A DNA stretch of 64,000 bases from an uncultured Actinomycetes bacterium. Its GTDB lineage: Bacteria > Actinomycetota > Thermoleophilia > RBG-16-64-13. The position numbers and the translations under genes were made by a program. The notes under the pieces are model-generated. The model saw only the letters and a list, made by a program, of their open reading frames with translations, did not search any database and was not told the origin of the DNA. The stretch spans positions 1,887,602-1,951,601 of the forward strand of contig CAVZIK010000006.1 of the NCBI GenBank assembly GCA_963775295.1, read 5' to 3'. Position 1 is the stretch's first letter. Each line of letters starts with the position of its first letter. This document shows positions 125 through 49,908 of this stretch, piece after piece.

Positions 125-1135
125 CTACGCCAGCGAACTGATGAGTGCCGGCACGACCGCTTTCCAGTCGTCCACAATGCCATAGTCGGCAAATGTGAAG
201 ATATCCGCTTTAGGATCTTTGTTGATGGCCACGATCACCTTGGAACTTGAGCAGCCGGCCATGTGCTGGCTGGCCCCGGACATGGCGACCGCGATATACA
301 GATCGGGGCTGACGATCTTGCCTGTAATGCCAATCTGTTGGCTGTCCGATGCCCACCCGGCATCGCACGGCGGGCGGGTCGCTCCAACGGCGCCGTGAAG
401 CAGGCCGGCCAACTCCGCAAGCTGTTGGAAGCCGGAAACACCTCCCACGCCCCGTCCTCCTGCCACGATGACCCTGGCCTCCTCCAGCTTGATACCGGCG
501 GTTGGCTCGACCTTCCTGTCCCGCACAGTGGCTCTGGGTGCAGACGGTACGATAGCGGCGGTGACATCGATCACTTGCCCCTGCAGTGCGTCGTCCCTGA
601 CCGCCGGAGCCATCGCCTTAAGCCTGATGGTAGCTACTTGGGGGTCGGTGCGGCAGGTCTGCACCGCCTGTGCATTGCCGCCGTATACCGGGCGCGTCAT
701 CAGCAGACGACCGGACTCTGGATGAACCTCCAATGCCATGCAGTCCATGGTTGCCCCGGTGTTGAAACGGAGAGCCAGCCAAGGCGCCAGGTCACGGCCC
801 AGTGGGGTCTGGCCCAGAAGTATGACGGTCGGAGGAGCCTGCTGAATGACCGTCTCCATGGCCTGAAGATAGGGTTCCGTGGCGTAATCGTTCAAGAAAG
901 GCGCGTCGACGACATAGACGCGGCTGGCACCGTAGGCGACAGCCTCCTCGGCCAACCCACGGACGCCGGCGCCGATGAGTACAGCGCTCAGTTGCTGTCC
1001 CAGCGCGGCCGCTAGACGGTTCCCGGCCCCGAGAGCCTCGGCGGCCACCGGCGCCAGTCTGCCGTCGCTGACCTCACAGTGTACTAGCACTCCACTACCG
1101 GTCTGCATCTCCATGTCAGCCCCCATTCTGGTCAC
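125..1135 (-). CDS. etfA: Electron transfer flavoprotein alpha subunit (EtfA). The true start is probably an internal ATG near 1114 (MEMQTGS...).
   Basis: The 336-aa translation has the FAD-binding C-terminal domain (…PDLYIAVAMSGASQHMAGC…IVAINKDP…). It lies immediately downstream of etfB on the same strand, a 6-nt gap. Confidence 0.9.
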   Translation of the reverse strand: MTRMGADMEMQTGSGVLVHCEVSDGRLAPVAAEALGAGNRLAAALGQQLSAVLIGAGVRGLAEEAVAYGASRVYVVDAPFLNDYATEPYLQAMETVIQQAPPTVILLGQTPLGRDLAPWLALRFNTGATMDCMALEVHPESGRLLMTRPVYGGNAQAVQTCRTDPQVATIRLKAMAPAVRDDALQGQVIDVTAAIVPSAPRATVRDRKVEPTAGIKLEEARVIVAGGRGVGGVSGFQQLAELAGLLHGAVGATRPPCDAGWASDSQQIGITGKIVSPDLYIAVAMSGASQHMAGCSSSKVIVAINKDPKADIFTFADYGIVDDWKAVVPALISSLA

Positions 1136-1141
1136 GGCGCC

Positions 1142-1948
1142 TCAAATCACTTTGGTCTCTCGCAGCCGCACAAGGAGCTGTCTGGCCTTCTCTTCGGGGT
1201 CGGCCCCCTCGAGGATCTCGCACGAGCCCTCGTGTACAGGGGTTTCCATCGTAAGAATCTCGAATCTGTTCGTCTCACCGAGCGCGATTCCCAGGTCCTC
1301 CGCGGTCCAGGTGGTAGTAGGCTTCTGGCCCGCGGACATGAATGCTTCCACTCCAGGCTCTCGCAGGGAACCGACCTCGTAGGTTGTCGTGACCACCGCC
1401 GGACACGGCACCTCAATCACCTCGTAACCGTCGGGCAACGACCTCTCGACGATGACCTTGTCGCCCTCCACCCCAACCTTGCGGGCGGCGGTAATGCAAG
1501 GAATGCCGAGCAGACCAGCGATGTAGGTGCCGACTTGCCCCGTGTTGGTATCAGCCGCCTGCAGCCCGCATAGGACCAGATCGAACGGCCTCAGCTTGCC
1601 GATGGCAGTGGCGATGGCCGAGGCCGTGAGGTAAGTGTCAAAGTCGTCGAAAGCGCCATCCTGAAGGAGGACAAGCCGGTCAGCCCCGGCGGCGAGAGGC
1701 GCGGTGACCACAGCTTTGACAAACTTCTTACCCAGGCTGATTACCGTGACCGTGGCCCCGTGAGCGTCTTTGATCTGAAGAGCGGCTTCCAGAGCGCTCT
1801 CGTCAAAGGGGCTCAGGACCGGCGGCGTAGCTTTCGGCGGGATCGCAGTTCTAGCCTCTGAATCAATGTGAAAGAGCGACAAAGGGATTTCTGGATCGAG
1901 CACCTGTTTCATGCACACTATTAGGTTCTTCAACGCTGCCTCGCTCAT
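1142..1948 (-). CDS. etfB: Electron transfer flavoprotein beta subunit (EtfB)
   Basis: The 268-aa translation has the typical EtfB N-terminus (MKQVLDPEIP…) and the VISLGKK…LVLCG…DTNTGQVG motifs. It sits in an operon with etfA. Confidence 0.9.
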   Translation of the reverse strand: MSEAALKNLIVCMKQVLDPEIPLSLFHIDSEARTAIPPKATPPVLSPFDESALEAALQIKDAHGATVTVISLGKKFVKAVVTAPLAAGADRLVLLQDGAFDDFDTYLTASAIATAIGKLRPFDLVLCGLQAADTNTGQVGTYIAGLLGIPCITAARKVGVEGDKVIVERSLPDGYEVIEVPCPAVVTTTYEVGSLREPGVEAFMSAGQKPTTTWTAEDLGIALGETNRFEILTMETPVHEGSCEILEGADPEEKARQLLVRLRETKVI

Positions 1949-2219
1949 CTGGTATCAAATGGCCGATCAATCCTGCCTAGTAAATCCACCAAGAGGATCT
2001 TTCCGGATTCATCCGGATGGCATAAGATCCGACGCTCCTTCGTGGGCAATATCTTAGTTGTTCCCTGTCATGAGAACGACCACAACTTAAACACGATTAT
2101 CCAAGCTGTCAAGCTGGTGGCGAGCATCTTGCCCCGGAAAAACACCCCTGCCTCCTGTAGCGAAGGCTCTCGTCTATTTTTTATGGCTCACCTCTTGCAC
2201 TGTTCCCAATTTGCGATAG

Positions 2220-2261
2220 AGTAGCGCTCGCTAGTAGCAAATGCTAGTAGCGAGCGCTACT
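2220..2261. promoter_or_regulatory. Perfect 42-bp inverted repeat (AGTAGCGCTCGCTAGTAGCA-AAT-GCTAGTAGCGAGCGCTACT). It lies in the 650-bp divergent intergenic region between etfB and the GlcD-like oxidase operon and is a candidate operator.
   Basis: Read directly from the sequence: 19-20-nt arms that are perfectly complementary around a 2-3-nt centre. It lies upstream of both divergent operons, next to an AT-rich stretch (2040-2225). Confidence 0.5.
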
Positions 2262-2617
2262 TACCAGGGGGGGTGCGCGAGCATGTCTGGTCGGTGCAAG
2301 GAGCAGGCGGGGAAGAGGATCCATCGCATCAGCGACGTGATGCGTCTCCGACGGCCAGAGCGTCTCTCGCTCATGATGCCTGTCGGTATGACGCTTGCCC
2401 GGTTGGGCGGCGTCACCAGTCTGTTCTCATCCGACACCATTTCCGGGCCGGCGCCGTCGGATCCCAGCCAATCCTGTCCCACAGCTACTTCCCGCGGACT
2501 ATCGCTGCTTTGGAAGGCTTCGTCTTGAGGTCCCGCGCCTCCTTGAGATCAAGCGGTTTTGTCGATCATGGGCTCTGCATGTAGCGCACTATTCGCACTG
2601 TGACAGGGAGGCCAAGC

Positions 2618-4093
2618 ATGGCTAAGGACGATCTCGTCGGCATCGTTGGCATGGAGAACATCCGGGATGACCCGGCCGTTCTGGAGGAGTACTCCGGTGG
2701 GTCTACGGAGAACACCCCAGTCGCCGTGGTCAGTCCGGCCAGCACCGACGAGGTCCAGCGGGTCGTCAAGTGGGCCAATGAAAGCCAGACTCCGCTTATA
2801 CCGGTGAGTTCAGGACCGCCCCATTTTCGGGGCGGGACCGTGCCCGGCATCAAGGGAGGCGTCGTCGTCGACCTGCGAAGGATGAACAGGATCATCCGCG
2901 TGGACGCCCATAATCGCGTCGCGATTGTTGAGCCGGGGGTCACCTTCGGCCAGCTTCAGTCCGAGCTTGCCACTAGCGGTCTCTCTGCCTACATGCCACT
3001 CCTTCCCCGTGCCTCCAAATCCGTGCTGGCCAGCGCTCTTGAACGTGACCCCATCCTGATGCCGAGCGTTCACTTTGACAGCACCGACCCGATGCTCTGC
3101 ACGGAGGTCGTGTTCGGCTCGGGTGACTATATGAGAACCGGCGAAGCCGCTGGGCCGGACACCCTGGAGCAGCAGTGGGAGATCAGCAAAGCGCAGATCA
3201 GCCCCTTCGGGCCCACCCAGATGGATCCGCAGAGGCTGCTGTCGGGCGCGCAGGGGACCATCGGTGTCGTCACCTGGATGTCCTTGAAGTGCCGGGAGAC
3301 GTCGGAACTCTATCGAGCATTCATGATCCCATCCGACAGCTTGGAGCCCTTGATCGAGCTTAGCTACCACCTGTCACGAATCCGCTTCACCGGCAAGATC
3401 TTCATCCTCAACGGGCTTAACCTCGCCGCCATAACCGGTGACGATCCTCGGGAGATAGCCGACTCGCGCGGTGGCTTACCCGCCTGGGTCATGTTTGTCG
3501 GCTTCGAGGGCTGCGGGCTCTTGCCGGAGGAAAAGGTCCAGTATCTGTCGGACGACCTTGGAGAACTGGCGGCTTCGTACGGCCTGCAACCCCAAACCGA
3601 GATCTCCGGAATCAAGGCGGAAGATTTCTACCTTCTCTTGATGGGACCTTCGACAGATCCCTACTGGAAGCTGAAATACAGGGGAGGCTTCGAAGATATC
3701 TTCTTCCTCAGCACGCAGGGCAAGACTCCAGAGCTCTCCGGAGTGATCCTGCAACTGGCCAGGCAGCTGGGATTCTCTCCCGAGAACATCGGCGCGTACA
3801 TCCAGCCGGTTGCACAGGGCACCAGCTGCCACTGCGAGTTCAACCTTTACTTCGATCCAGCAGATGACGCCGAATCAGATCTGATGCGCCGTTTGGAAGC
3901 TGAGGCAGTTGATCGCCTAGAAGAAGCGGGCGCCTTTTTCTCCAGGCCATACCCGGGATGGGTCGAGGTGGCGTACCGGCGTTCCCCCGACACCGCTGCC
4001 ATGCAGAAGAAGGTCAAGGACATCTTCGACCCCAACTGGATACTCAATCCTGGCAAGTTGTGCTTCGGGCCGGGCGAACTGAGGGGGAACTGA
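2618..4093 (+). CDS. FAD-binding (PCMH-type) oxidase, GlcD / D-2-hydroxyacid dehydrogenase-like
   Basis: FAD-binding domain motifs (VVSPASTDEVQRVVKWANE…PVSSGPPHFRGG) in a ~490-aa product. GGGAGG lies 5 nt before the ATG at 2618. The ORF track begins at 2600. Confidence 0.85.
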   Translation: MAKDDLVGIVGMENIRDDPAVLEEYSGGSTENTPVAVVSPASTDEVQRVVKWANESQTPLIPVSSGPPHFRGGTVPGIKGGVVVDLRRMNRIIRVDAHNRVAIVEPGVTFGQLQSELATSGLSAYMPLLPRASKSVLASALERDPILMPSVHFDSTDPMLCTEVVFGSGDYMRTGEAAGPDTLEQQWEISKAQISPFGPTQMDPQRLLSGAQGTIGVVTWMSLKCRETSELYRAFMIPSDSLEPLIELSYHLSRIRFTGKIFILNGLNLAAITGDDPREIADSRGGLPAWVMFVGFEGCGLLPEEKVQYLSDDLGELAASYGLQPQTEISGIKAEDFYLLLMGPSTDPYWKLKYRGGFEDIFFLSTQGKTPELSGVILQLARQLGFSPENIGAYIQPVAQGTSCHCEFNLYFDPADDAESDLMRRLEAEAVDRLEEAGAFFSRPYPGWVEVAYRRSPDTAAMQKKVKDIFDPNWILNPGKLCFGPGELRGN

Positions 4094-4094
4094 G

Positions 4095-5372
4095 ATGGCC
4101 TGGCAGGATTTCAAACATGATATGGAGCGCTGCACTCGCTGTTCGTACTGCAAATACATACCGTGGCGCTTCATCAAGGACTTCAACTATATGGAAGGCT
4201 GCCCGTCCGCTGCCAGGTACCACTGGCATGCCTTTGCGGCCGGCGGCAAGTACAACCTCTCATATGCTTTGATGCAGGGCGCCATCGAGATCGACGACAC
4301 CTTCCTGGACGTGGTGTACAGGTGCATGATGGACGGCTCCTGCGATATCGCCTGCAAGGTACAGCAGGATATCGAGCCGCTGCAGCACATGCAGGAACTC
4401 AGGATCGAATGCGTCGACCAAGGCTATCTGTTGCCCCAACATCAGCCCTATCTCAGAAGCCTGCGCAACGAAGACAACATGTTGCTCAAGCCGCGGGCGG
4501 AACGGGGAGATTGGGCGGCCGACCTCGACGTCAAACGGGTCACCCAAGAAAGCGCCGAAGTCGTGTACTTCGCCGGCTGCCGCTATTCCTATGACCAGGA
4601 ACTGTGGCCGATAGCCCGTGCAGGTGTGACGCTGCTGCAGTCGGCCGGAATAGATGTAGGCATTCTGGGGGCCGACGAAGCCTGCTGCGCGGGGCGCGCG
4701 TACGAAATGGGTTACGAAGGTGAGTTGACCAAGTTCGCTGAACACCATGCCGACACCCTCAAAACGGTGGGCGCCAAGACGCTGGTCACGCCTTGCTCAG
4801 ACTGCTACGGCACCTTCAAGGTCCTTTACGACAAGATCGGGAAGGACACAGGGGTCGAGGTCTACCACATCACTCAGTACCTGGAGAAGTTGATCCAGGA
4901 AGGCACGCTGCGGTTGAAGAAGCCCCTCGACCTCAAGGTGACCTATCACGACCCCTGCCATCTTGGCCGTTTGGGCGAACCGTGGATTCACTGGGAAGGG
5001 AAGGAATACAAGCCCGCGGGCATGCAGATCTGGCTGCACGATCCTCCCAAGAAGTATCGTCGGGGGACCAACGGTGTCTACGACACCCCCAGGAACATCA
5101 TCAAGAGCGTCCCGGGCGTGGAACTCGTTGAGATGTACCGCACCAGGGAGTACGCGTGGTGCTGCGGCGCCGGCGGCGGTGTGATCGACGCCTACCCGGA
5201 CTTTGCCGAGTGGGCGGCTACTGAGAGGCTCAAAGAGGCCAAGGCGGTTGGCGCCGAGGCGATCGTCAGCGCCTGCGGCTGGTGCAAGAGGAACTTCCTC
5301 AACGCAGCTAGACAGACCGGCGACGAGATCAAGGTCCTGGACATCATCGAACTGGTGCAGGAATCCATTTGA
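4095..5372 (+). CDS. Fe-S oxidoreductase with cysteine-rich CCG domains (GlcF / HdrD-like)
   Basis: Has a CTRCSYCKY ferredoxin-like motif and two CCG-type motifs (CSDCYGTF, …WCCGAGGG…). It is transcribed together with the flanking FAD oxidases. Confidence 0.85.
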   Translation: MAWQDFKHDMERCTRCSYCKYIPWRFIKDFNYMEGCPSAARYHWHAFAAGGKYNLSYALMQGAIEIDDTFLDVVYRCMMDGSCDIACKVQQDIEPLQHMQELRIECVDQGYLLPQHQPYLRSLRNEDNMLLKPRAERGDWAADLDVKRVTQESAEVVYFAGCRYSYDQELWPIARAGVTLLQSAGIDVGILGADEACCAGRAYEMGYEGELTKFAEHHADTLKTVGAKTLVTPCSDCYGTFKVLYDKIGKDTGVEVYHITQYLEKLIQEGTLRLKKPLDLKVTYHDPCHLGRLGEPWIHWEGKEYKPAGMQIWLHDPPKKYRRGTNGVYDTPRNIIKSVPGVELVEMYRTREYAWCCGAGGGVIDAYPDFAEWAATERLKEAKAVGAEAIVSACGWCKRNFLNAARQTGDEIKVLDIIELVQESI

Positions 5373-5406
5373 CGCCTCGGGCGAGGAAGCGGTGAGGAGC
5401 CTAGCG

Positions 5407-7020
5407 ATGAGATTGACTCAAGAAGAATACAAAGCACTGGAAGAAATCGTCGGCCCTGAGTACATCACTCAGGACCCCGTAATCATGGAGAGCTACTGCC
5501 AGGTCTGGGGCAACAAGGTGCAGTTCGGCGACAAGCGACACCGTCCGCCGGCTGCCGTGGTCTTGCCGGGAAGTACCGAAGAGATACAGGCGATCGTGCG
5601 GTTCTGCAATCAAGCCGGCATCTTGTTCAAACCCTCGGCCCGCGCCTTTGAATACGTGGCCACCTACCTCAGCGACGATCGCGGGATCCTGCTTGAGCTG
5701 AAGAGACTCAACCGCATACTGGAGATCGACCCCAAGAACATGCACGCGGTGGTCGAACCGTTCGTGACGGTCTATCAACTCATCGACGCCGCTAGCAAGC
5801 AGGGCTTCTACGTGGGCAAGCCGGGAGTGGGATACAGCGCCGCGGTGATCTCGCTGGCCTGCTGTCACCAGGAGATGACCATCTCCCAGCTCTTCACCAG
5901 CGGCTACGGGCGCAACGTGCTGGGTGCAGAGTGGGTCCTGCCGACGGGGGACATCCTGAACTTGGGTACGGCCAACCGAGAAGGAGGCTGGTTCTCGGGG
6001 GATGGGCCGGGCTTCAGCTTGAGGGGCATCCTGCGCGGGCGTGCCGGAGCCAACGGCGGGCATGGAGTCATCACCAAGTGTTCGGTGAAGCTCTATCCCT
6101 GGAACGCCCCCGCGCCCACGCAGTACCGATTGACAAGGGAGTCGGGCCAAGCCCTCTCGGCCGCCCAAATTGAGAAGGTGCCCGACACCTATCGCGTGAA
6201 CGTACTTACCTTCCCGGACACCGAGAAGATGATGAGGGCCGCTCAAGACATCGGCCACGCCGAGATCGCCTGCATTGTAGCCCCTGCCTATCTCAACACC
6301 GGCTTTCATCAGGAGGGCAACGACGAACAGTGGGCCAGTATGCGGGTCTCGCCCCCCGACCCGGACAAGATCGCGAGGACGGTGCCCGTGTTTGTCACCG
6401 GCCACTCGGCTCGGGAGCTTGAATATCGGGAAAAGGCCGTGATGTCGGCCATGGAGAAATGGGGCGGCCACCTCGACCCCGCGTGGAACAACGAGAAGAC
6501 AAAGGCGCAGATTTTCATGTACCAGATATGGTCCACAGGCGTAACGCTGAGGGCCACCGGTGACTTCATGTTGTCCACCCAGGGGACCGACGGCAGCCTG
6601 GAAAGTCAGCTGAAATATCGCGCCATAGAGTTCCAGGCTCTCCAACCCTTTGTTGAGGCAGGCGATACCGTCCACCCCAACATGGGCATGTCGTACCGTC
6701 CCATGGAGCACTTCTCACTTGGCTTCTCAGGCGGCATCGCCATGGGCATCGATCCCTGGGACCCCATATCGTACGCAGCGGCCAAGAAGTACTTGGACAT
6801 AGTCTACGACCCCGACGGGCCCTGCCGGAGCTTCGGATACACAAATCGGGGAGCCATGATGCAGGTGGAGGATATCGAGCATATCCACGAGAAGTGGGGC
6901 CCCATGTACGATCACGCCGATCTCTGGCTGCAAAAGGTGAGGAACATGCTCGACCCCAATCGCGTGGCTGATTGGTCGGCATACATACCGCCGGAGTACA
7001 GCAGCAACGAAACCAAATAG
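5407..7020 (+). CDS. Second FAD-linked oxidase (GlcD/GlcE-like paralogue)
   Basis: FAD_binding_4-like N-terminus (…AAVVLPGSTEEIQAIVRFCNQAGILFKP…). The ORF track starts at 5203, which overlaps the preceding gene. The ATG at 5407 (MRLTQEEYK) is the likely start. Confidence 0.8.
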   Translation: MRLTQEEYKALEEIVGPEYITQDPVIMESYCQVWGNKVQFGDKRHRPPAAVVLPGSTEEIQAIVRFCNQAGILFKPSARAFEYVATYLSDDRGILLELKRLNRILEIDPKNMHAVVEPFVTVYQLIDAASKQGFYVGKPGVGYSAAVISLACCHQEMTISQLFTSGYGRNVLGAEWVLPTGDILNLGTANREGGWFSGDGPGFSLRGILRGRAGANGGHGVITKCSVKLYPWNAPAPTQYRLTRESGQALSAAQIEKVPDTYRVNVLTFPDTEKMMRAAQDIGHAEIACIVAPAYLNTGFHQEGNDEQWASMRVSPPDPDKIARTVPVFVTGHSARELEYREKAVMSAMEKWGGHLDPAWNNEKTKAQIFMYQIWSTGVTLRATGDFMLSTQGTDGSLESQLKYRAIEFQALQPFVEAGDTVHPNMGMSYRPMEHFSLGFSGGIAMGIDPWDPISYAAAKKYLDIVYDPDGPCRSFGYTNRGAMMQVEDIEHIHEKWGPMYDHADLWLQKVRNMLDPNRVADWSAYIPPEYSSNETK

Positions 7021-7070
7021 AAGGACTGACTGGTCTTGAGGCGGGCAAAAGCTACGAAAGGGGATCAGAG

Positions 7071-7859
7071 ATGTTGTTGAAGGACAGAGTGGCTATCGTC
7101 ACCGGGTCGGCCAAAGGCATGGGCCAGGGCATCGCCCTCAAGTACGCCGACGAGGGCTGCAACGTGGCCGTCGTCGACATTGACGCAGCCATGGCTGAAG
7201 AAACGGCCGCCCAGATAGCGGCGAAAGGTGTCGAAGGACTGGCGTTGCCCTGTGACGTCACTGACATCAACCAGGTGCGGGCCGCCGTGCAGGCCGTCGC
7301 CGACAAGTTCGGCAAGATCGACATCCTGGTCAACAACGCTGGGGCCATCGCTAAACACATGAACATCGAGGACATGCCGGAAGAGGCCTGGGACAAAGTC
7401 CAAGCCCTCAACATCAAGAGCCATTTCCTCTTCTGCAAGTTCGTCGTCCCGTACATGAAGCAGGCGAGGTTCGGCAAGATCATCGGCATGTCGTCCATCG
7501 GTGCCGTTCTGCCGCCCGCCCACGAGATCAACTACAACACGGCCAAAGGCGCAGTCATGGCTTTCACCAACGACCTGGCCACCGCCTTGGCCCCATACAA
7601 CATCAACGTCAACTGCATACTGCCCGGCCCGATCAAGACCCATTTCTATGATGGCCTGTTCGGTACCGTGTCCGAGGCGGAGATGGAAGAGATATTCGCA
7701 GGCATCGGCAGAAAGACGCCGCTACAGCGGATGGGCACTTCGGAGGATATAGCCGGGGCCGCGCTGTTCCTAGCCTCGGAGCTATCGTCCTACATCACCG
7801 GTCATCCCCTGTACGTGACCGGCGGTCTGCCGTTGCAACCCACCGGACCGGCTCACTAG
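7071..7859 (+). CDS. Short-chain dehydrogenase/reductase (SDR) family oxidoreductase
   Basis: Has the TGSAKGMG Rossmann motif, NNAG, and the S…Y…K catalytic triad pattern. A GGGGA RBS precedes the ATG at 7071. Confidence 0.85.
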   Translation: MLLKDRVAIVTGSAKGMGQGIALKYADEGCNVAVVDIDAAMAEETAAQIAAKGVEGLALPCDVTDINQVRAAVQAVADKFGKIDILVNNAGAIAKHMNIEDMPEEAWDKVQALNIKSHFLFCKFVVPYMKQARFGKIIGMSSIGAVLPPAHEINYNTAKGAVMAFTNDLATALAPYNINVNCILPGPIKTHFYDGLFGTVSEAEMEEIFAGIGRKTPLQRMGTSEDIAGAALFLASELSSYITGHPLYVTGGLPLQPTGPAH

Positions 7860-7861
7860 TC

Positions 7862-9259
7862 ATGGGGGCTTCTACGGCCGGTAGCGCAATCACCGCCATG
7901 GATAGGATCATTGCCAATATTCTGGAAGCGGAGTTTGAGGCAGTTGATCGAGAAACGCTGCAGAATGCCAAGGATCGTATCATCGACACGGTGGGCTGCC
8001 TCATCGGCGGTGCCGGCGACCCCAGCAATCCCGAACTCGTCAGACTCATCCTGGACTTTGGGGGCAAGCCGGAAGCGACGATCTTCATGTACGGCGGCAA
8101 AGTCCCCGCCTCCCATGCCGCTATGGTCAACTGCATCCTCTGCCGTTCCTTCGACTTCGAACCCGTAAGTCCGGTGGTGGAAGACCACATCGCCCCGGGT
8201 CACGTGTCCGGCACGACCGTTATGACCGCCCTCACTCTGGGTGAGGCTGTCGGCGCCGGCGGCCGCGAAATAATCACGGCCATGCTGTTGGGAGACGATC
8301 TGGCGGCGCGCTTGCTCAACACGTGCGAGTTCACTCTCACGCTGGGCTGGGATGGAAACGGTACGGCCAACGCCTTGGGGGCCACGGCCATCGCCGGGCG
8401 TCTCATGGGGCTGAACGAGAAGCAGCTGAGGAATGCGTTCGGATTGGTGCTGAGCCAGCTGAGCGGCAGCGCGCAGAACATCACGGAATCGACTTCAGCC
8501 TTTAAGCTGCCCCTCGGTCTGGCCGCCCGCAACGCCATCTTTTCCACGGAACTCGCCGCCGCCGGCTGGACCGCTCCGAAAGACGCGCTACTGGGACAAT
8601 TCGGCTACTACGACCTATTCACGAGCGGTATCCGCAACGAAGAGCTCTTGACCAAGGACCTGGGCAAGAGGTTCTGGGGCGACAGGACCTTCAAGCCTTA
8701 CCCGTGCTGCCGCGGCACACATGGGCCCATAGACTGCGCCCTCGACATTGTGAACAACCACGGCGTCGATCCCGACAGTATCGACGGGGTAATGCTGTAC
8801 TTGCCGGAAGGGGGACTGAACGGTGTCTTGGGCCAGCCCTGGGAGATCGGCGACTTTCCCCACGGCAACGCCATCTTCAGCTTCCGTTTCACCGTGGCCA
8901 CCGCTCTGCTGAGAGGTAGCGTGAAGCCGGAGCACTTCACCGAGGAGGCGATCCGCGATCTCAAGCTCGCCGAACTCATCGCAAAGATCGAATTTGCCGA
9001 CCTTCCGCCGGGAAAGACTGGCTTCGTCCTGAGGGTCCGCACGAAGGAAGGCGGCGAATACGAGGCCCAGAGCCAGATTCCCCGGGGGGACATTGCGGGC
9101 AATCCCTTGTCTCGCGATGAGCTGCTGGCAAAGTTCTGGGGGAACGTCGAATTTGCGCAGAAACATAAGAGGAGCGACGCGGAGGCGTTACTCCAGCTCC
9201 TGGAAGACCTAGAAGGGCAAGACGACATCAGCGAGGTAACGCGGCTACTGGTCCCATAG
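7862..9259 (+). CDS. MmgE/PrpD family protein (2-methylcitrate dehydratase / cis-aconitate decarboxylase superfamily)
   Basis: The 465-aa translation has an N-terminus typical of PrpD-family proteins (…NAKDRIIDTVGCLIGGA…). The gene is adjacent to the SDR gene with a 2-nt gap. Confidence 0.8.
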   Translation: MGASTAGSAITAMDRIIANILEAEFEAVDRETLQNAKDRIIDTVGCLIGGAGDPSNPELVRLILDFGGKPEATIFMYGGKVPASHAAMVNCILCRSFDFEPVSPVVEDHIAPGHVSGTTVMTALTLGEAVGAGGREIITAMLLGDDLAARLLNTCEFTLTLGWDGNGTANALGATAIAGRLMGLNEKQLRNAFGLVLSQLSGSAQNITESTSAFKLPLGLAARNAIFSTELAAAGWTAPKDALLGQFGYYDLFTSGIRNEELLTKDLGKRFWGDRTFKPYPCCRGTHGPIDCALDIVNNHGVDPDSIDGVMLYLPEGGLNGVLGQPWEIGDFPHGNAIFSFRFTVATALLRGSVKPEHFTEEAIRDLKLAELIAKIEFADLPPGKTGFVLRVRTKEGGEYEAQSQIPRGDIAGNPLSRDELLAKFWGNVEFAQKHKRSDAEALLQLLEDLEGQDDISEVTRLLVP

Positions 9260-9307
9260 TTTTCGGCACGAGCAGCACAACTGGACAGAGAGGGGGGTCT
9301 TCGTCGG

Positions 9308-11431
9308 ATGTCACCGCTTGTGAGCAGTTATCTCGGCATCCCTGGCTACGTGTTGTTCTGGGTTCTTTTCGCGGTGGCAATGGGACTCTTCATTCAGAGG
9401 GTCGTTCTTCTGATCCGTCTCCTCAGACTTGGTAGACCGGAGAAACGCTTCGATCACTTGCGCCAACGCGTTGGCGGCATGCTGGCGATACCCTTCTCAC
9501 AGACAAGCAACTTGAGGCACGTGTCTGTGCGGGACTTGGCCCCGCTGGGACACGCTTTGATGTTCTGGGGGCTGGGCATCTTCGCTCTCGGATATGTCGT
9601 GTTCCTCGGCCTGGGAGCCGGTCTCGGCCTATTCCCGATCATGAGCGGCAGCGCCTTTGAGAGGATCTTCTTCTCGATTATGGAGATCGTGGGGATATTC
9701 ATCCTCCTCGCGATCATCGGGGTCATCATAAAGCGGTACGTAGTCAGACCAGCCCGGCTGGAGAGGAAAGAGACCACGAGCGAGAAGGTGATTCAACCCA
9801 TACTTCTCGGGGTCATCATGGCCGTAGTGGTGCTGCACTATCTTCTTGAGGGCTTCGGCTATGCCGCGGGTGGCATCCAGCATGCCTGGCCACCGATCGG
9901 CATGGCTATTGCCGACTCCCTCAGGCACGCTGGCATTGCTTCACACAGCCTGACGACTGTATTCAAGAGCCTCTGGTGGCTCAATTGGCTGATACTGCTC
10001 AGCGCAATCGTCTACACACCCCGCTCCAAACACCTCCACCCTCTCTTTATCTTCCCAAACATGGCCTTCAGGAATCTGGCCTCCAAAGGGACCCTGCGGC
10101 TGGTGGATCTGAACGACACCACCACGATCAGAAGGGCGGAGACCCGGGATCTCACTTGGAAACAACTGCTGGACTCCTTCGCGTGCACGTGGTGCGGCCG
10201 CTGCCATATCGCGTGCCCGGCCCAGGCCAGCGGCAAGCCACTCTCCCCAAGGGAGTTGGTCTTAGGCACAAAAGAGCATTTGCTGAAGGTGGGCCCGCCG
10301 CTGCTCAAAACAGGGACCGCGAAAGAGCGGGCTCAAAACGAGGCATCCGGCACCGACAGCGGCGACGCTCAGCAGTCGGCGGCGCCTACGCCCTTCGTTG
10401 GAAGCGTCATCACGGAAGAGGCCGTCTGGGCCTGCACAACCTGTCGAGCCTGCCAGGAAGTCTGTCCTTCTTACAACGAGCAGATGAATACCATAGTCGA
10501 TCTCAGGCGGCATCTCCAGATGGTCACCACGACCGAGACGGCCAGAGAGACATTGAAGAATCTCAGAGTGAGGGGCCACCCTTGGCGCGGGACGACATAT
10601 GCCCGCACGGACTGGGCCGAGGGGCTTGGTGTCAAGGTAGTCGGCGAAGACGACCAGGTAGACATTCTTTACTGGGTGGGTTGCACGCAGGCCCTGGAGG
10701 ATCGCAGCCTCAAAGTCGCGCAGGCCATTGCCTTTCTCATGAAGAAGGCTGGCATCAATTTTGGGATCCTCGGTGAAGAGGAGATGTGTTGCGGTGATCC
10801 CGCACGCCGTCTGGGGGCGGAACACATCTTCCAGATGATGGCCGTAAACAATATCCAGCTTCTCAACAGCTATAACGTCAAGAAGATCGTGACGGCTTGT
10901 CCTCATTGCTACAACACCTTGAAGAACGAGTATCCCGAGTTCGGAGGTCACTTCGAAGTCGTCCATCACACCGAGATGCTTGCCGGCCTGGTGCGAGACG
11001 GCAGGCTGGCAATGGGGGATGCCGTCAAAGAGACCGTCACCTATCAGGATCCTTGTTATCTCGGCCGCTACAACGACCTGTATCAGCCGGCCCGGCAGTT
11101 GTTGCAACATATGCCCGGGAAGACCTTGGTGGAAATGGAGAAGAACCGGGCGGACGCCTTCTGCTGCGGAGGCGGGGGGGGGCGGATGTGGCTTGAGGAA
11201 AGTGCGGGCACCAGGATCAACGCGCTCCGCCTGACTCAAGCGATGAGCACCGGGGCAAACGTGGTGGCCACCGCCTGCCCCTACTGTCTGCAGATGCTCG
11301 AAGACGCCGCCAGGGGCGAGGACGCAGGCGAATCGGTGGCCGTCAAAGATGTTGCGGAGATACTCGCTGACGCTGTGCTGGTCAGTCCGACGCTCCAATC
11401 CAATCCAGGGCTGGGAGGTGAACTAACCTGA
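9308..11431 (+). CDS. Membrane-anchored Fe-S oxidoreductase. An N-terminal ~6-TM domain is fused to a 2x[4Fe-4S] ferredoxin domain and two CCG domains (HdrD/DsrK/GlpC-like).
   Basis: Hydrophobic N-terminal ~250 aa. Two CxxCxxCxxxCP motifs (CTWCGRCHIACP; CTTCRACQEVCP). CCG motifs (CCGDPA…, CCGGGGGRMW). Confidence 0.8.
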   Translation: MSPLVSSYLGIPGYVLFWVLFAVAMGLFIQRVVLLIRLLRLGRPEKRFDHLRQRVGGMLAIPFSQTSNLRHVSVRDLAPLGHALMFWGLGIFALGYVVFLGLGAGLGLFPIMSGSAFERIFFSIMEIVGIFILLAIIGVIIKRYVVRPARLERKETTSEKVIQPILLGVIMAVVVLHYLLEGFGYAAGGIQHAWPPIGMAIADSLRHAGIASHSLTTVFKSLWWLNWLILLSAIVYTPRSKHLHPLFIFPNMAFRNLASKGTLRLVDLNDTTTIRRAETRDLTWKQLLDSFACTWCGRCHIACPAQASGKPLSPRELVLGTKEHLLKVGPPLLKTGTAKERAQNEASGTDSGDAQQSAAPTPFVGSVITEEAVWACTTCRACQEVCPSYNEQMNTIVDLRRHLQMVTTTETARETLKNLRVRGHPWRGTTYARTDWAEGLGVKVVGEDDQVDILYWVGCTQALEDRSLKVAQAIAFLMKKAGINFGILGEEEMCCGDPARRLGAEHIFQMMAVNNIQLLNSYNVKKIVTACPHCYNTLKNEYPEFGGHFEVVHHTEMLAGLVRDGRLAMGDAVKETVTYQDPCYLGRYNDLYQPARQLLQHMPGKTLVEMEKNRADAFCCGGGGGRMWLEESAGTRINALRLTQAMSTGANVVATACPYCLQMLEDAARGEDAGESVAVKDVAEILADAVLVSPTLQSNPGLGGELT

Positions 11432-11528
11432 GCCGCCGTTCACTCCGGGTGGGAGCGTCCGCCAAGAGGAGCTTTGGTCAACATTGAAAGGAGGGATATA
11501 GGTCATCTTCCTGAGTGCAGAGGCTGGT

Positions 11529-12719
11529 GTGGTAACAGATGGCGAAGAAATGGTCTTACAACATGAAGCGATGGGGGGCTTGACCGTGAAAAAGCTGCTA
11601 TTTGCATTACTTGCGCTGGTGATGATCGGTGGTCTAATGATGGCTGGTTGTGGGGGGACGGCAACAACGGCCACGACTTCGGCGGTAACTACGTCCGCCC
11701 CTACGGCAGTATCAACGGCTGATACTTCCACAGCATCGACCGACAGTACAACGGCAACAACCGTGGCCATGGCCGCCAAACCCGACTTCTATTTGAGATG
11801 GGCGCAGTTTGCGACGGCCGTTCTGCCGGATAGCCAACCTCAGATCAAGATGGCCGAGAACGTTTTTAACCGCACCAACGGACGGTGCAAGATCGAGCTG
11901 TTCTGGAGCGATTCCCTGGTTCCCATGTTTGACTCCATGGATGCCGTGAGACAGGGTTCCGCGGAGATGGCCACCTTCCCCTTCGGCCCCTTTGGCGGTC
12001 TCGACCCCAGGTTTACATCTTCGGAAATGCCTCTCTTCTACAACACGATAGAAGCCATGGTCGAAGCGCAGTCAGCCCTGATGCCGGCCTACAGCAGCGT
12101 GTTCGAAGAGAAGTTCAATCAGAAATGTATCCAGGTCAGGTCCATCAACCCACTCGGAATCGGGTCAGCGAAGAAGCCCGTCAAGACCCTCGCTGACTGG
12201 AAGGGTCTCCTGACCCAGACAATCTCTCCCGCGATGGGCCCGTTGGTACAGAAGCTGGGTGGGGTTGGCGCACCCGCCTCCCCCCTCGACGTATATGAGT
12301 TGCTCCAAAAAGGCACGGTGGATGCAACGGTCCAGTCGCTCGGCAAGTTCGTAGAGGCTAAGCTCTGGGAGGTCTGTAAGTATTACACCGACTGCATGTT
12401 CATCTCCGCCTCAGCGGCAACGACTGTGAACTTGGATGTATGGAACAAGATGCCTAAGGATATTCAGGACATCATCCAGGAAGAGGCAAAAATTGCCCAG
12501 GATGAGATCCAGCGTCTCACCGTAGAGACATTCTACTCGTATACCAAGGAACTCGAAGCAAACATGGAGGTCTACCACCTACCGGCGGCAGAACGCGCGG
12601 TATGGCAGGCCCAGCTCAAACCGCTTGTTGACGGCATGATGGCCGCAATGGGAGATTTCGCGGCGACTGTGCAAAAGACGGCTGACGACGCCAACGCAAA
12701 GTATCCGTATCCTTACTAG
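11529..12719 (+). CDS. dctP: TRAP transporter substrate-binding protein (DctP family), a lipoprotein
   Basis: Signal peptide plus lipobox (…LMMAGCGG) and the DctP-like fold signature. It is followed by dctQ and dctM. The start codon is ambiguous between GTG 11529 and ATG 11571. Confidence 0.75.
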   Translation: MVTDGEEMVLQHEAMGGLTVKKLLFALLALVMIGGLMMAGCGGTATTATTSAVTTSAPTAVSTADTSTASTDSTTATTVAMAAKPDFYLRWAQFATAVLPDSQPQIKMAENVFNRTNGRCKIELFWSDSLVPMFDSMDAVRQGSAEMATFPFGPFGGLDPRFTSSEMPLFYNTIEAMVEAQSALMPAYSSVFEEKFNQKCIQVRSINPLGIGSAKKPVKTLADWKGLLTQTISPAMGPLVQKLGGVGAPASPLDVYELLQKGTVDATVQSLGKFVEAKLWEVCKYYTDCMFISASAATTVNLDVWNKMPKDIQDIIQEEAKIAQDEIQRLTVETFYSYTKELEANMEVYHLPAAERAVWQAQLKPLVDGMMAAMGDFAATVQKTADDANAKYPYPY

Positions 12720-12783
12720 CAAGAGGCGCTTAAGAGGCACCGTATTAGCATAGGTTAACCAACACGTAAGTGTAGTAGCCGAG

Positions 12784-12828
12784 CGCCAATAGGAAAGGAG
12801 GTAGTAGAAATACCTCCTTCCTATTGGC
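12784..12828 (+). other. Perfect intercistronic stem-loop (19-bp stem, 7-nt loop) between dctP and dctQ
   Basis: GCCAATAGGAAAGGAGGTA-gtagaaa-TACCTCCTTCCTATTGGC is perfectly complementary. It is AT-richer than its surroundings and no U-tract follows it. Confidence 0.55.
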
Positions 12829-12869
12829 GGAAGAGATGTATAAGCTGGACGAGAGAAACGGTTGCTGTC

Positions 12870-13424
12870 ATGAAGATAGGTAGGTTTCTTGATAAGACAA
12901 TTGACATATTGAGCAGAGGCGCTCTGCTCATCGGTGGATTGCTACTCATGGCCATGGCCATCGCCGTCACTTACGGCGTGTTAGCGCGTTACGCGTTTCA
13001 TCGTCCGTCGATCTACGCCATGGATCTCACAAAGATTCTGATGATACCAGCGCTAGTGCTGTCCGTCTCTTATGTGCAAAAGTACAAACGGCACCTTCAA
13101 GTGGACTTCATCTCGTCACGTTTGCCCGAGAAGGTTCGGCTCGTAGTGCTTGATTTGATCGTGCCGCTCTTCGCCCTTTTTGTCGGGTTCATTCTGGTAT
13201 GGAAGGGATGGGAAGCCATGGCCTACTCCTTCTCTATTCACGAAACAAGCTTTTCGACATGGGCTGAACCGTTGTGGCCGGTGAAGCTGTCCATTCCCAT
13301 AGGCTATGGGCTTTTGTGCATCGTAATAGTGGGGCAACTCGTACAAGTCGTCGCTCAATTGTTCGGTTACAGGAGGATTTCGCCGGGAGGTTCTGAAGTG
13401 ACGGTAGAGAGCGAGCGGGTGTAG
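12870..13424 (+). CDS. dctQ: TRAP transporter small permease (DctQ)
   Basis: A 184-aa, 4-TM protein positioned between the SBP and large permease genes. Confidence 0.8.
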   Translation: MKIGRFLDKTIDILSRGALLIGGLLLMAMAIAVTYGVLARYAFHRPSIYAMDLTKILMIPALVLSVSYVQKYKRHLQVDFISSRLPEKVRLVVLDLIVPLFALFVGFILVWKGWEAMAYSFSIHETSFSTWAEPLWPVKLSIPIGYGLLCIVIVGQLVQVVAQLFGYRRISPGGSEVTVESERV

Positions 13425-13427
13425 GCG

Positions 13428-14723
13428 ATGGACTACGTACCCGGATTGATATGTCTCGGCGTCATGATCGTTATGATGCTGATGGGCGTGCCCATCGCCT
13501 TCAGCATGCTGATCCCCGCTCTCCTTGTCGGGCTGTTCACGTATGGCCCGCCGGTCATGGACCTGTTGGGGAGAACTACCTTTTCCTTCCTCTTCAGGGA
13601 CCAGCTGGCGCCCCTGCCGCTGTTCTTCCTGCTGGCCTGCATCATCGCGGAGACGGACGTAGGCGATGAGCTATTCGGGGCCGCCAGCAAGTGGCTGTCC
13701 CGGGTACCGGGCGGGCTGGTGGCCGCCAGTATCATCGGCGAGGGCGCTATGGGCGCGATAATGGGCCACAGCGGCGGCGTTATCATCACGGTGGGCAAAG
13801 TCGCGGTACCACAGTACGAGAAACATGGATACGACCGAGGGTACGCGCTGGGAGCGTTGGTCTGCGGCGGCGTTCTCGGCCCGCTGATCCCACCCAGCAC
13901 CACGATGATAGTCCTCACCCTCTTCGCGGAGGTCTCCCTAGGCAAGCTGTTCATCGGCGGCATTATTCCCGGCTTGCTCCTGGTCGTCATGCTGTCCGGA
14001 ACGGCTGTGTTCCTGGCCGTGCGGAATCCCAAGTTGGGGCCTCCCGCCGGCAGGTATACCTGGAGAGAGAAGTTCCGTTCCCTCAAGAGGCTCTGGATTG
14101 TTGGATTGATAATATTCAGCATACTCGGGGTCATCTATTTGGGAATAGCGTCAACAACTGAGGCCGCAGGCTTCGGATGTGTGGCGGCTCTGCTGGTTGC
14201 CGTGTTCGCCTATCGGTTCCGTTTTCGGCATTTACGGAGAGCGGTCTTTGAGGCTGCGCTCGTTACCGGGATGCTGATTCTGGTCATCATCGGAGCTTCC
14301 TTCTTCACCTACGTCGTAGGCAGCGGCGGACTGGGTAAGTCGATAGCTTCGCTCGTAGTCAATTCTGGGATGTCACCCATAGGGTTCATCGTTCTGCTCA
14401 ACATTATGTATCTTTTCCTTGGTTGTATCATGGATACAATGACCATACTGCTGCTAACACTGCCAATATTCGTGCCTGTAGTTACCGCGTTAGGTTTTGA
14501 CATGGTATGGTTTGGTGTAATGATAGTGGTTAATATGCAAATAGGGCTTATAACACCACCGCTTGGACTAGATCTGTATATCATGCGAAACACGTTCGGG
14601 ATACCGCTGGGAGAACTTCTGCGAGGGGTAAGGCCGTTCATCATTGTCCTGCTTGTTTTCCTGGCCCTGCTGGTCGCTTTCCCGCAGATCGTCACCTGGC
14701 TTCCGAACCTGATGTCGGGTTAG
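13428..14723 (+). CDS. dctM: TRAP transporter large permease (DctM)
   Basis: A 431-aa polytopic membrane protein with DctM-like architecture, translationally coupled to dctQ. Confidence 0.9.
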   Translation: MDYVPGLICLGVMIVMMLMGVPIAFSMLIPALLVGLFTYGPPVMDLLGRTTFSFLFRDQLAPLPLFFLLACIIAETDVGDELFGAASKWLSRVPGGLVAASIIGEGAMGAIMGHSGGVIITVGKVAVPQYEKHGYDRGYALGALVCGGVLGPLIPPSTTMIVLTLFAEVSLGKLFIGGIIPGLLLVVMLSGTAVFLAVRNPKLGPPAGRYTWREKFRSLKRLWIVGLIIFSILGVIYLGIASTTEAAGFGCVAALLVAVFAYRFRFRHLRRAVFEAALVTGMLILVIIGASFFTYVVGSGGLGKSIASLVVNSGMSPIGFIVLLNIMYLFLGCIMDTMTILLLTLPIFVPVVTALGFDMVWFGVMIVVNMQIGLITPPLGLDLYIMRNTFGIPLGELLRGVRPFIIVLLVFLALLVAFPQIVTWLPNLMSG

Positions 14724-42797: not shown

Positions 42798-43142
42798 GTG
42801 TTTCTGATGCTCCTTCCCGAGCAATGCGGCGGACGTGCGCTTCTGTGGATGAATTCTTGCACGATTTCCGTATTCCTGGTACCCGCGGGCGTCGACCCGC
42901 AGTTCCCTCGATCTCGAACAGTCTATGTTTACCCCCTCCAGACGTCTGGGTAACAGGGGGCAGAACGCCGCGTCTGGGGCCGTCGCGTTCTGGTCATCAG
43001 AGCTTTGCGTGAGCGATGATCCCGGTGACGGTTATCAAACCAAAGCCGGGTAGGACTCGCAAATCGGGAGGGGCCATCAAAGGTCGCCACTCCCGAACGT
43101 GTCGGGGTGTGCTTGGTCGCCAATGGGACAAGGGGTGGTCGC

Positions 43143-44705: not shown

Positions 44706-44720
44706 AGGAGGGAGTGAGAC

Positions 44721-49903: not shown

Positions 49904-49908
49904 GTGGG

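Follow-up and report, generated by a model that had tools for sequence, protein, structure and literature searches.

We describe here an eleven-gene cluster at one end of a 64,000-nucleotide stretch of DNA (hereafter, the window) from an uncultured actinomycete of the class Thermoleophilia (GenBank assembly GCA_963775295.1, contig CAVZIK010000006.1, positions 1,887,602 to 1,951,601). Three consecutive genes of the cluster encode a flavoprotein, an iron-sulfur protein and a second flavoprotein, which we call D1, F and D2 and refer to together as the trio; around them are genes for an electron transfer flavoprotein (ETF, subunits EtfA and EtfB), a 707-aa membrane protein and a tripartite ATP-independent periplasmic (TRAP) transporter. 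Judged by sequence comparison, D1, F and D2 are a separate family of flavin/iron-sulfur dehydrogenases with the vanillyl-alcohol oxidase (VAO) fold, distinct from the glycolate oxidase GlcDEF, and the 707-aa protein is an ETF:menaquinone oxidoreductase of the EtfD/EMO type. We see a slightly better than even chance that the cluster is a catabolic oxidation module linked to the respiratory chain, in which electrons would pass from D1-F-D2 to ETF, from ETF to EtfD, and from EtfD to menaquinone.

The trio has the same composition as GlcDEF, namely two proteins with an FAD_binding_4 domain and one dicluster ferredoxin-like protein with two CCG domains, but its subunits are not orthologous to those of GlcDEF, and its genes run D-F-D' where those of GlcDEF run D-E-F, as the first-pass annotation of this DNA had correctly pointed out. 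When scored against the curated NCBIfam models, D1 and D2 reached 60.5 and 56.0 bits for GlcD (TIGR00387, cut-off 567.9), D1 reached 29.4 bits for GlcE (NF008439, cut-off 284), and F reached 19.9 bits for GlcF (NF008434, cut-off 333). By BLASTP, D1 and D2 were 22% and 26% identical to E. coli GlcD over 235 and 243 aa, in each case within the FAD domain only, while F was 20% identical to E. coli GlcF (E 4e-4). Two motifs, HxGDGNxH and GEHG (at residues 386 and 429 of E. coli GlcD), provide the metal ligands in the subfamily of D-2-hydroxyacid dehydrogenases, and neither motif was found in aligned D1 or D2; in their places D1 has QGTSCHCE and FFSRPY. D2, moreover, is full length at 537 aa, whereas GlcE has 350 aa. 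These scores, the low identities over partial lengths and the missing motifs rule out a bona fide glycolate oxidase. They thus agree with the earlier view that the trio is not the canonical enzyme, and, together with the closeness of D1 to the 4-phenol oxidoreductases described below, they take away the ground for calling its flavoproteins GlcD-type 2-hydroxyacid oxidases. D1 and D2 are themselves paralogues, with 27% identity over the FAD domain, and D2 defines the smaller family, with only 135 matching cluster representatives (E <= 1e-30) among 1.84 billion.

The best solved relatives of D1 are a vanillyl-alcohol dehydrogenase from Marinicaulis, eugenol oxidase, p-cresol methylhydroxylase (PCMH), pinoresinol hydroxylase and VAO. 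These 4-phenol oxidoreductases matched at E values of 1e-27 to 1e-16, or down to 9e-31 by profile, and all came ahead of the D-lactate dehydrogenases. The AlphaFold model of D1 (predicted local distance difference test score, pLDDT, of 78) gave as its best Foldseek matches vanillyl-alcohol dehydrogenase, VAO, PCMH and eugenol oxidase, with template-modelling scores, normalised to query length, of ~0.74 (0.72-0.76) as against ~0.67-0.68 for D-lactate dehydrogenases. The D2 model (pLDDT 73) was equally far from the VAO-type enzymes and the D-lactate dehydrogenases, with identities of 14-18%. D1 therefore has both the fold of the VAO/PCMH group and its best sequence and fold matches there, but the similarity is mainly confined to the FAD domain, and its redox partner is an Fe-S/CCG protein instead of a cytochrome c subunit: no gene for a cytochrome c, as found with the dehydrogenase (hydroxylase) members of the group, is present in the cluster, where the partner is F. 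The PCMH of G. metallireducens uses two flavoprotein isoforms.

The active site of D1 also departs from that of the phenol oxidoreductases. In a profile alignment to vanillyl-alcohol dehydrogenase, whose residues we take to correspond to the VAO numbers given here, Arg71, Arg131, Ser442 and Arg443 of D1 fall at VAO Tyr108, Asp170 (Pro151), Tyr503 and Arg504. Only the arginine of the phenolate-binding triad Tyr108/Tyr503/Arg504 is kept, and the Asp170 base is replaced by Arg131; with one of three phenolate-binding residues and no Asp base, D1 was rejected as a canonical 4-alkylphenol oxidoreductase. Among 32 members of the D1 family from three phyla, Lys134, Arg443 and Tyr445 are invariant, Arg131 is kept in 29, Cys404, His405 and Glu407 in 29-30, and Arg71 in 25, and the whole FFSRPY segment (440-445) is conserved. 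FAD is attached covalently through His422 in VAO and through Tyr384 in PCMH; His405 of D1 (30 of 32) lies roughly where such a histidine would be expected, in a segment left unaligned by HMMER. The conserved residues thus define a VAO fold that carries the catalytic signature of neither a phenol oxidase nor a hydroxyacid dehydrogenase. Because Arg71, Arg131 and Arg443 form an arginine cluster, the alignment suggests that the substrate of D1 is anionic. The most conserved segment of the protein, residues 151-216, was modelled at a pLDDT below 50 and may be an interface.

A hydropathy scan found no transmembrane segment in F, the best NCBIfam match of which is TfrB (2e-44). Over 292 aa, the CCG half of F has 30% identity with that of the 707-aa EtfD-type protein of the same cluster (BLASTP, E 1e-39) and is evidently its paralogue; GlcF is a more distant relative of F than are EtfD and TfrB. 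Its cysteines (13/16/19/36, 77/83/87, 162/197/198/234/237 and 288/356/357/394/397) make up two complete five-Cys CCG motifs and an N-terminal pattern, CxxCxxC...CP / Cx5Cx3C, which we take to be of the SdhB/TfrB kind, in agreement with the top NCBIfam match. A comparable electron exit is found in other systems: TcuB, of the tricarballylate dehydrogenase TcuAB, is a CCG-type electron-exit protein. TcuAB, DgcAB and FadF are alike in that an Fe-S protein of the CCG type, linked to the membrane or to ETF, re-oxidises a flavin dehydrogenase; the flavoprotein folds differ from those of the trio. FadF and DgcB, soluble or truncated EtfD homologues, have been proposed as acceptors of electrons from ETF (PMC13083937). 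Since the CCG half of F is paralogous to the ETF-facing half of EtfD, we propose F as the dock for EtfAB.

Among solved structures, the only strong match of the 707-aa protein is EtfD of M. smegmatis (PDB 9OJN, E 1.8e-96), in an alignment that spans a membrane region (17-333) and a soluble region (356-692). Cryo-EM and an assay have established that M. smegmatis EtfD wires ETF to menaquinone and that its carriers are a b heme and four Fe-S clusters, of which two are cubane [4Fe-4S] clusters and two sit in CCG domains (PMC13083937). When we placed the ligands listed in that study on the printed, aligned stretches, the heme-b ligands His78 and His241 faced histidines in the 707-aa protein, and the 12 listed cluster cysteines that fall in these stretches (301/304/307/311, 412/415/418/422 and 503/538/581/584) all faced cysteines. 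The two proteins therefore have in common the heme-b histidines, both four-Cys [4Fe-4S] motifs, both CCG domains and linkage to etfAB. In S. wolfei, a DUF224 protein that is clustered and co-expressed with etfAB (Swol_0696-0698) has been assigned as an EtfAB:quinone oxidoreductase (PMC3582634). The earlier description of the 707-aa protein as HdrD/DsrK-like was right at the level of domains, but the specific family is EtfD/EMO, and this identity explains why there are ETF genes in the cluster. Six transmembrane helices had also been claimed; the hydropathy scan gave four clear segments (18-36, 91-109, 123-141 and 161-179, with an extra one at 5-23 that overlaps the first), to which, on our own reading of the sequence, a putative fifth can be added near residues 220-245. 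The solved M. smegmatis protein has five helices.

The protein encoded in the window differs from known EtfD proteins in several ways. It does without the long disordered C-terminal tail of M. smegmatis EtfD (707 versus 1042 aa), and where the first CCG domain of the latter, which binds a linear [3Fe-4S] cluster, has Cys-Thr, the window protein has a full Cys-Cys pair (EMCCGD, residues 494-495), for which reason this domain may hold an HdrB-like noncubane [4Fe-4S] cluster instead. Its gene is clustered with a VAO-fold dehydrogenase and not with acyl-CoA dehydrogenases, and its partner ETF is of the bifurcating type and not group I-like.

This last point emerged from both ETF subunits. The best five PDB matches of EtfA (CarE 3e-77, 5OL2 2e-68, FixB 4e-63, LctC 9e-61 and 4KPU 3e-54) each represent the large subunit of an electron-bifurcating complex, with non-bifurcating ETFs at 2e-44 or weaker, and the best matches of EtfB are CarD (8e-41), 4KPU_B (6e-33) and 5OL2_B (3e-32), as compared with 2e-22 for the non-bifurcating 1EFP; for both subunits the top five matches all come from bifurcating complexes, which is a ranking by similarity and not a phylogeny. 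The subunits are thus most similar to those of Ldh-EtfAB (LctBCD), Bcd-EtfAB, CarCDE and EtfABCX/FixABCX. The recognition motif for the bifurcating FAD (b-FAD) in EtfB is DGDTAQVGP (PMC9232219). At this place the EtfB of the window reads DTNTGQVGT, identical at five of nine positions, and the form DTNxGQVGT is conserved in most EtfD-linked loci. The partial conservation of this motif and the lack of an N-terminal ferredoxin domain in EtfA (Pfam) set the ETF of the window apart from the bifurcating complexes. The gene order found in relatives, etfB-etfA followed by a VAO-fold dehydrogenase, is the same as that of LctBCD, but the dehydrogenase of the window is a three-subunit flavo-Fe-S enzyme that matches LctD only distantly (E 4.5e-10, FAD domain only). 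A quinone-reducing partner is common to this ETF and EtfABCX; in the window it is EtfD and not EtfCX.

We next consider how widely the trio is conserved. Thousands of D1 relatives are found in metagenomes at 62-88% identity, and the few that are named come from metagenome-assembled genomes (MAGs) of Dehalococcoidia or Thermoleophilia. Among species-representative genomes a scan found 42 loci, every one of them in a MAG of Dehalococcoidia, Actinomycetota, Desulfobacterota or Acidobacteriota, apart from one labelled archaeon; overall, trio loci are found in Actinomycetota, Chloroflexota, Desulfobacterota, Acidobacteriota and Alphaproteobacteria. Synteny was examined by tblastn, and gene order was counted wherever the flanking sequence sufficed. 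The gene directly after D1 is F in 36 of 37 loci, the exception being a frameshifted long-read assembly, and D2 comes next after F in 32 of 32. Shared by 32-36 independent loci of several phyla, this order is beyond chance.

The genes that accompany the trio depend on the lineage. We split the loci into two groups, those with a D1 at least 59% identical to that of the window (the clade of the window) and those below 59% (the more distant clade). An ETF lies within 10 kb in 17/19 loci of the former and 3/16 of the latter, and EtfD is present in 10/17, where it adjoins etfBA, and 0/14, respectively. The corresponding counts are 9/20 and 1/24 for the PrpD family, 10/20 and 3/24 for the short-chain dehydrogenase/reductase (SDR), and 4/20 and 2/24 for TRAP genes. 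The clade of the window has its ETF mostly as etfB-etfA directly upstream of D1, and a contiguous EtfD-etfB-etfA-D1-F-D2 arrangement was found in two phyla despite other rearrangements. The full eleven-gene set is present in three or four Actinomycetota MAGs, namely L004, L037 and L053, with a D1 identity of 88-90%, and L013, at 65%. The PrpD-family copies of Dehalococcoidia are 35-37% identical to that of the window. The co-conservation that the first-pass annotation had put forward as a check is therefore borne out for the trio, which is near-invariant, and for ETF and EtfD, which most members of the clade have beside it; PrpD, SDR and TRAP are found in a minority of trio loci. The etfBA pair is inverted in the window, but points the same way as the trio in all four of these MAGs, and etfB-etfA-D1 is co-directional and contiguous in L004, L013 and L053. 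A second, divergent D-F-D trio (~41/40/29% identity), along with a DUF169 gene, lies upstream of etfBA in L004 (2680-7970) and L053 (2731-7829), and L006 and L009 likewise carry a second divergent trio; the left edge of the window is only 124 bases past the end of etfA. The presence of second trios in close relatives means that the family is multi-copy within genomes.

To characterise the wider surroundings, we clustered all open reading frames (ORFs) of the trio loci. In the more distant clade, the recurrent neighbours are a divergent MarR gene directly upstream (15 loci), double-cupin proteins (12), molybdopterin enzymes with an N-domain like that of pyrogallol hydroxytransferase (9), MatE (7), tungsten-type aldehyde:ferredoxin oxidoreductases (6), DUF169 (6) and major facilitator superfamily (MFS) transporters (5). 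The pyrogallol-hydroxytransferase-like enzymes stand beside the trio in L008 (15372-18095), L011, L012, L020, L023, L027, L029 and L033, often with aldehyde:ferredoxin oxidoreductase and DUF169 genes nearby, and in Dehalococcoidia these neighbours may form a set for the anaerobic transformation of polyphenols. A pair of HGD-D genes (2-hydroxyacyl-CoA dehydratase/BcrBC-like) lies ~34 kb from the cluster in the window, and HGD-D is also found near the trio in L002.

Trios are also present in cultured Alphaproteobacteria, where we found them by tblastn of plasmids and a homologue search seeded with the A. vitis copy (37/36/27% identical to D1/F/D2 of the window). On plasmid pAtS4e of A. vitis S4 the neighbours are an MFS transporter, a porin, MarR, a cytochrome P450 with ferredoxin and reductase, and an aldehyde dehydrogenase (ALDH); in Nitrospirillum iridis, MarR, a TonB receptor, a CoA ligase, ALDH and beta-oxidation genes; in Phaeobacter, a DctP directly upstream, MarR, an FAD_binding_3 hydroxylase, an FAA hydrolase and a CoA ligase; in Xanthobacter autotrophicus, an FAD_binding_3 hydroxylase, a VOC/extradiol-type protein, an FAA hydrolase, ADC, GST, ALDH and a P450; and in Sphingobium, a TonB receptor, AraC, a cupin and a Zn-ADH. 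These are usual companions of aromatic catabolism and recur in several independent lineages, a circumstantial indication that the D1 family, like the phenol oxidoreductases, has its genomic context in aromatic catabolism. The family-wide context suggests that the substrate is an aromatic or phenolic acid. The first-pass annotation had instead named a C4-C6 hydroxy- or dicarboxylic acid, a size class that finds no support in our analysis and from which the neighbourhoods in other lineages point away, toward aromatics.

Altogether, we uphold the idea that the cluster is a catabolic module linked to ETF and acting on an imported organic anion, and we infer the following order of electron carriers. 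The TRAP system, as is known of such transporters, would import the organic anion, and a soluble D1-F-D2 heterotrimer would oxidise this anion or a close derivative. Electrons would leave the flavin or flavins through the Fe-S clusters of F, EtfAB would dock on the CCG half of F and take them up, and membrane-bound EtfD, with its two [4Fe-4S] clusters, two CCG clusters and heme b, would re-oxidise ETF and reduce menaquinone. The SDR and the PrpD-like enzyme would carry out adjacent steps in the lineage of the window only. We chose the oxidative direction because the trio sits in aerobic catabolic clusters of Proteobacteria, and because the most parsimonious role for EtfD is the one demonstrated by experiment.

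Several points weigh against such a module. D1, F and D2 are joined into one complex from synteny alone. Because residues 151-216 of D1 are poorly modelled, what we say of its active site is drawn from sequence alignment and not from structure. The PrpD, SDR and TRAP genes are absent from most trio loci and so may not share the substrate of the trio. A literature search found neither a characterised member of the D1-F-D2 family nor biochemical work on one. The EMO/ETF chain is reportedly reversible in syntrophs and operates reductively in Syntrophus. Finally, with an ETF of a bifurcating-type lineage, linear electron transfer is not the sole option. This last point prompts what we consider the main rival, a bifurcating, confurcating or reversed mode. 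EtfAB could split the electrons of NADH between menaquinone, with EtfD in the role of EtfCX/FixCX, and F-D1-D2, the branch on which a difficult substrate would be reduced. Or else an organic acceptor could be reduced at the expense of menaquinol, by way of EtfD and ETF, in the direction said to be taken in Syntrophus. Bifurcating complexes supply the closest matches to both ETF subunits and part of the b-FAD motif is kept (D, Q, V and G of DGDTAQVGP), but only five of its nine positions match, Asp124 is replaced by Asn, EtfA has no ferredoxin domain, and the cluster has no NADH-linked or ferredoxin gene. EtfABCX is described as coupling NADH, menaquinone and ferredoxin (PMC10734219); on the other hand, non-bifurcating ETFs closely akin to bifurcating ones are known, and trios without ETF are found in aerobic catabolic clusters, which argues for an ordinary dehydrogenase. 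We therefore regard this mode as quite unlikely. A bolder version would have the bifurcating ETF, NADH, menaquinone (via EtfD) and the trio perform quinone-coupled bifurcation in those uncultivated Dehalococcoidia and Actinomycetota that have the full set, and so drive redox reactions of aromatic or humic-derived acids that would otherwise be unfavourable. D1-F-D2 would then found a new class of VAO-fold enzymes, F would be a soluble version of the half of EtfD on which ETF docks, and ETF would shuttle between homologous CCG modules; this we treat as a long shot.

Other explanations concern the substrate of the trio, or its link to ETF. The trio could be a dehydrogenase for an aliphatic D-2-hydroxyacid (lactate, 2-hydroxyglutarate, malate or citramalate) that feeds ETF, with PrpD and SDR completing a route for a C4-C6 acid. 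The GlcDEF-like composition, the lctBCD-like order of etfB-etfA and the dehydrogenase in relatives, the D-lactate dehydrogenases among the top Foldseek matches of D2, and an arginine-rich D1 site that fits carboxylates would all accord with this, as would the tricarboxylates handled by the PrpD family and the di- and monocarboxylates commonly carried by TRAP systems. However, neither D1 nor D2 has the HxGDGNxH and GEHG motifs of E. coli GlcD, scores fall an order of magnitude short of the cut-offs of the curated GlcD, GlcE and GlcF models, D1 is nearer to the 4-phenol oxidoreductases in sequence and fold, and the neighbours found elsewhere typify aromatic catabolism, not small-acid metabolism. 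With the GlcD identity this idea has lost its main support, and we think it unlikely, though not fanciful. For a glycolate oxidase or dehydrogenase with a shuffled gene order, the likelihood is negligible: the JGI pipeline does call D2 homologues 'glycolate oxidase', and the subunit composition is that of GlcDEF, but the model scores, the partial-length identities of 20-26% to E. coli GlcD, GlcE and GlcF, the length of D2 and the missing motifs leave this reading effectively refuted at the level of sequence. It could also be that EtfAB and EtfD are housekeeping genes of the beta-oxidation type that happen to lie beside the trio, the electrons of which would go elsewhere, for instance to quinone via F as proposed for GlcF and GlpC. 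In keeping with this, trios of the distant clade and of Proteobacteria generally lack an adjacent ETF (present in 3/16) and EtfD (present in 0/14), the etfAB genes of the window are on the opposite strand, and mycobacterial EtfD serves many dehydrogenases (PMC13083937). Against it stand the contiguous EtfD-etfB-etfA-D1-F-D2 arrangement in two phyla, the adjacent ETF in 17/19 loci of the clade, and the absence of acyl-CoA dehydrogenase genes from these clusters, and we hold it to be rather improbable.

Among the remaining genes of the cluster, the SDR has no NCBIfam match beyond generic SDR models. Pfam finds both family domains in the PrpD-like protein, NCBIfam gives it no equivalog match, and its nearest structures are a B. 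subtilis IRG1-like protein and iminodisuccinate epimerase (~2e-25), with cis-aconitate decarboxylase (CAD) at ~3e-18. Compared with mouse CAD (7BR9), it keeps Asp93, His103, Lys207 and Lys272 and changes Thr97 to Val, His159 to Asp and His277 to Cys; as three of the seven residues that we take to make up the CAD/IRG1 active site are changed, we rejected a canonical cis-aconitate decarboxylase. DctP, DctQ and DctM are encoded together as a complete TRAP set. DctP has one N-terminal hydrophobic segment followed by LMMAGC and a linker of ~40 residues rich in Thr, Ala and Ser, and is probably a lipoprotein, to judge from this N-terminus; the same linker gives rise to a spurious Pfam 'New_glue' match. 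Among solved TRAP binding proteins DctP has no close relative (best E 9e-15), so that its ligand cannot be deduced.

The features of the cluster, and other genes of the window referred to in the text, are collected in Table 1. We checked the gene calls against the ORF list and by Pfam and NCBIfam scans, and the inventory of the first-pass annotation stood up in full: all eleven genes are where it had placed them, with the SDR, MmgE/PrpD-family and DctPQM genes found as named, and etfA and etfB run divergently from the oxidase genes and all the others. The annotated start of D1, with GGGAGG 7 nt upstream, gives the 491-aa protein, and the start of D2 at 5407 is backed by the N-termini of homologues.

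Table 1. Features of the gene cluster and other genes of the window mentioned in the text (positions are those of the window).
Feature	Position	Strand	Basis
etfA, large ETF subunit, 336 aa	125-1135	-	Pfam ETF + ETF_alpha
etfB, small ETF subunit, 268 aa	1142-1948	-	Pfam ETF
Near-perfect inverted repeat, candidate operator	2220-2261		arms 2220-2239 and 2242-2261
D1, VAO-fold flavoprotein, 491 aa	2618-4093	+	Pfam FAD_binding_4, weak FAD-oxidase_C tail
F, soluble Fe-S protein, 425 aa	4095-5372	+	Pfam Fer4_8 + 2x CCG
D2, second VAO-fold flavoprotein, 537 aa	5407-7020	+	Pfam FAD_binding_4 only
SDR, 262 aa	7071-7859	+	Pfam adh_short_C2 5e-64
MmgE/PrpD-family protein, 465 aa	7862-9259	+	PF03972 2e-41, PF19305 3.4e-25
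EtfD/EMO-type membrane protein, 707 aa	9308-11431	+	Fer4 + 2x CCG; PDB 9OJN match
DctP, TRAP solute-binding protein	11529-12719	+	Pfam DctP 1.5e-41
DctQ, small TRAP membrane subunit	12870-13424	+	Pfam DctQ 2.9e-25; four hydrophobic segments
DctM, large TRAP membrane subunit	13428-14723	+	Pfam DctM 2.7e-81
DnaE homologue, 1560 aa	15957-20639	-	
Heme-copper oxidase subunit I gene, then FixO/cytochrome c fusion, cbb3-like	43107-46169	+	
HGD-D gene pair	48662-50892	-	

The plus-strand genes are tightly packed, with spacers of 1-150 bp, and although 17 terminator-like sites were found as against 10.9 +/- 4.0 by shuffling, none is convincingly intergenic among these genes. The inverted repeat, in the divergent spacer between etfB and D1, has arms of 20 nt each (AGTAGCGCTCGCTAGTAGCA and TGCTAGTAGCGAGCGCTACT) that are 95% complementary and separated by 2 nt. 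It occurs once in the window, where no chance matches are expected, and no copy was found in any related locus searched; it looks like an operator. No regulator gene is present in the cluster, and distant loci have their divergent MarR gene where the repeat sits. The G+C content of the cluster (window 2000-14000) is 0.55-0.60, below that of its flanks (0.62-0.67 at 16-20 kb) and of most of the window. DctM is the last gene of the cluster; beyond it, on the opposite strand, come a tandem-Usp gene and then dnaE, and a scan of the remaining 44 kb of the window for related genes turned up unrelated functions only. The DnaE homologue has ~360 residues without a Pfam assignment between its PHP domain (104-288) and the pol III alpha NTPase domain (650-907), and a second such stretch at residues 1076-1301. 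The cbb3-like oxidase genes mean that the host may respire oxygen, though the relatives of the cluster are mostly from MAGs of anaerobes.

The superfamily of each component and the link between ETF and EtfD are established; what is new here is the D1-F-D2 family, together with the likeness of its Fe-S subunit to EtfD and the fixed way in which, in uncultivated anaerobes, it is associated with EtfD and an ETF of the bifurcating type. In sediments, aquifers and peat, trios are abundant among uncultivated Dehalococcoidia, anaerobic Actinomycetota and Desulfobacterota. The 'glycolate oxidase' label given by one pipeline is a likely annotation error, and a metabolic reconstruction built on it would probably assign the trio the wrong carbon source. 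With EtfD recognised, a path of electrons from an organic substrate to menaquinone can be put to the test and, if this path is correct, the clientele of EtfD would extend beyond the acyl-CoA dehydrogenases. Homologous trios in cultured, tractable Alphaproteobacteria (A. vitis, Xanthobacter, Nitrospirillum and Phaeobacter) open the question of the substrate to laboratory work.

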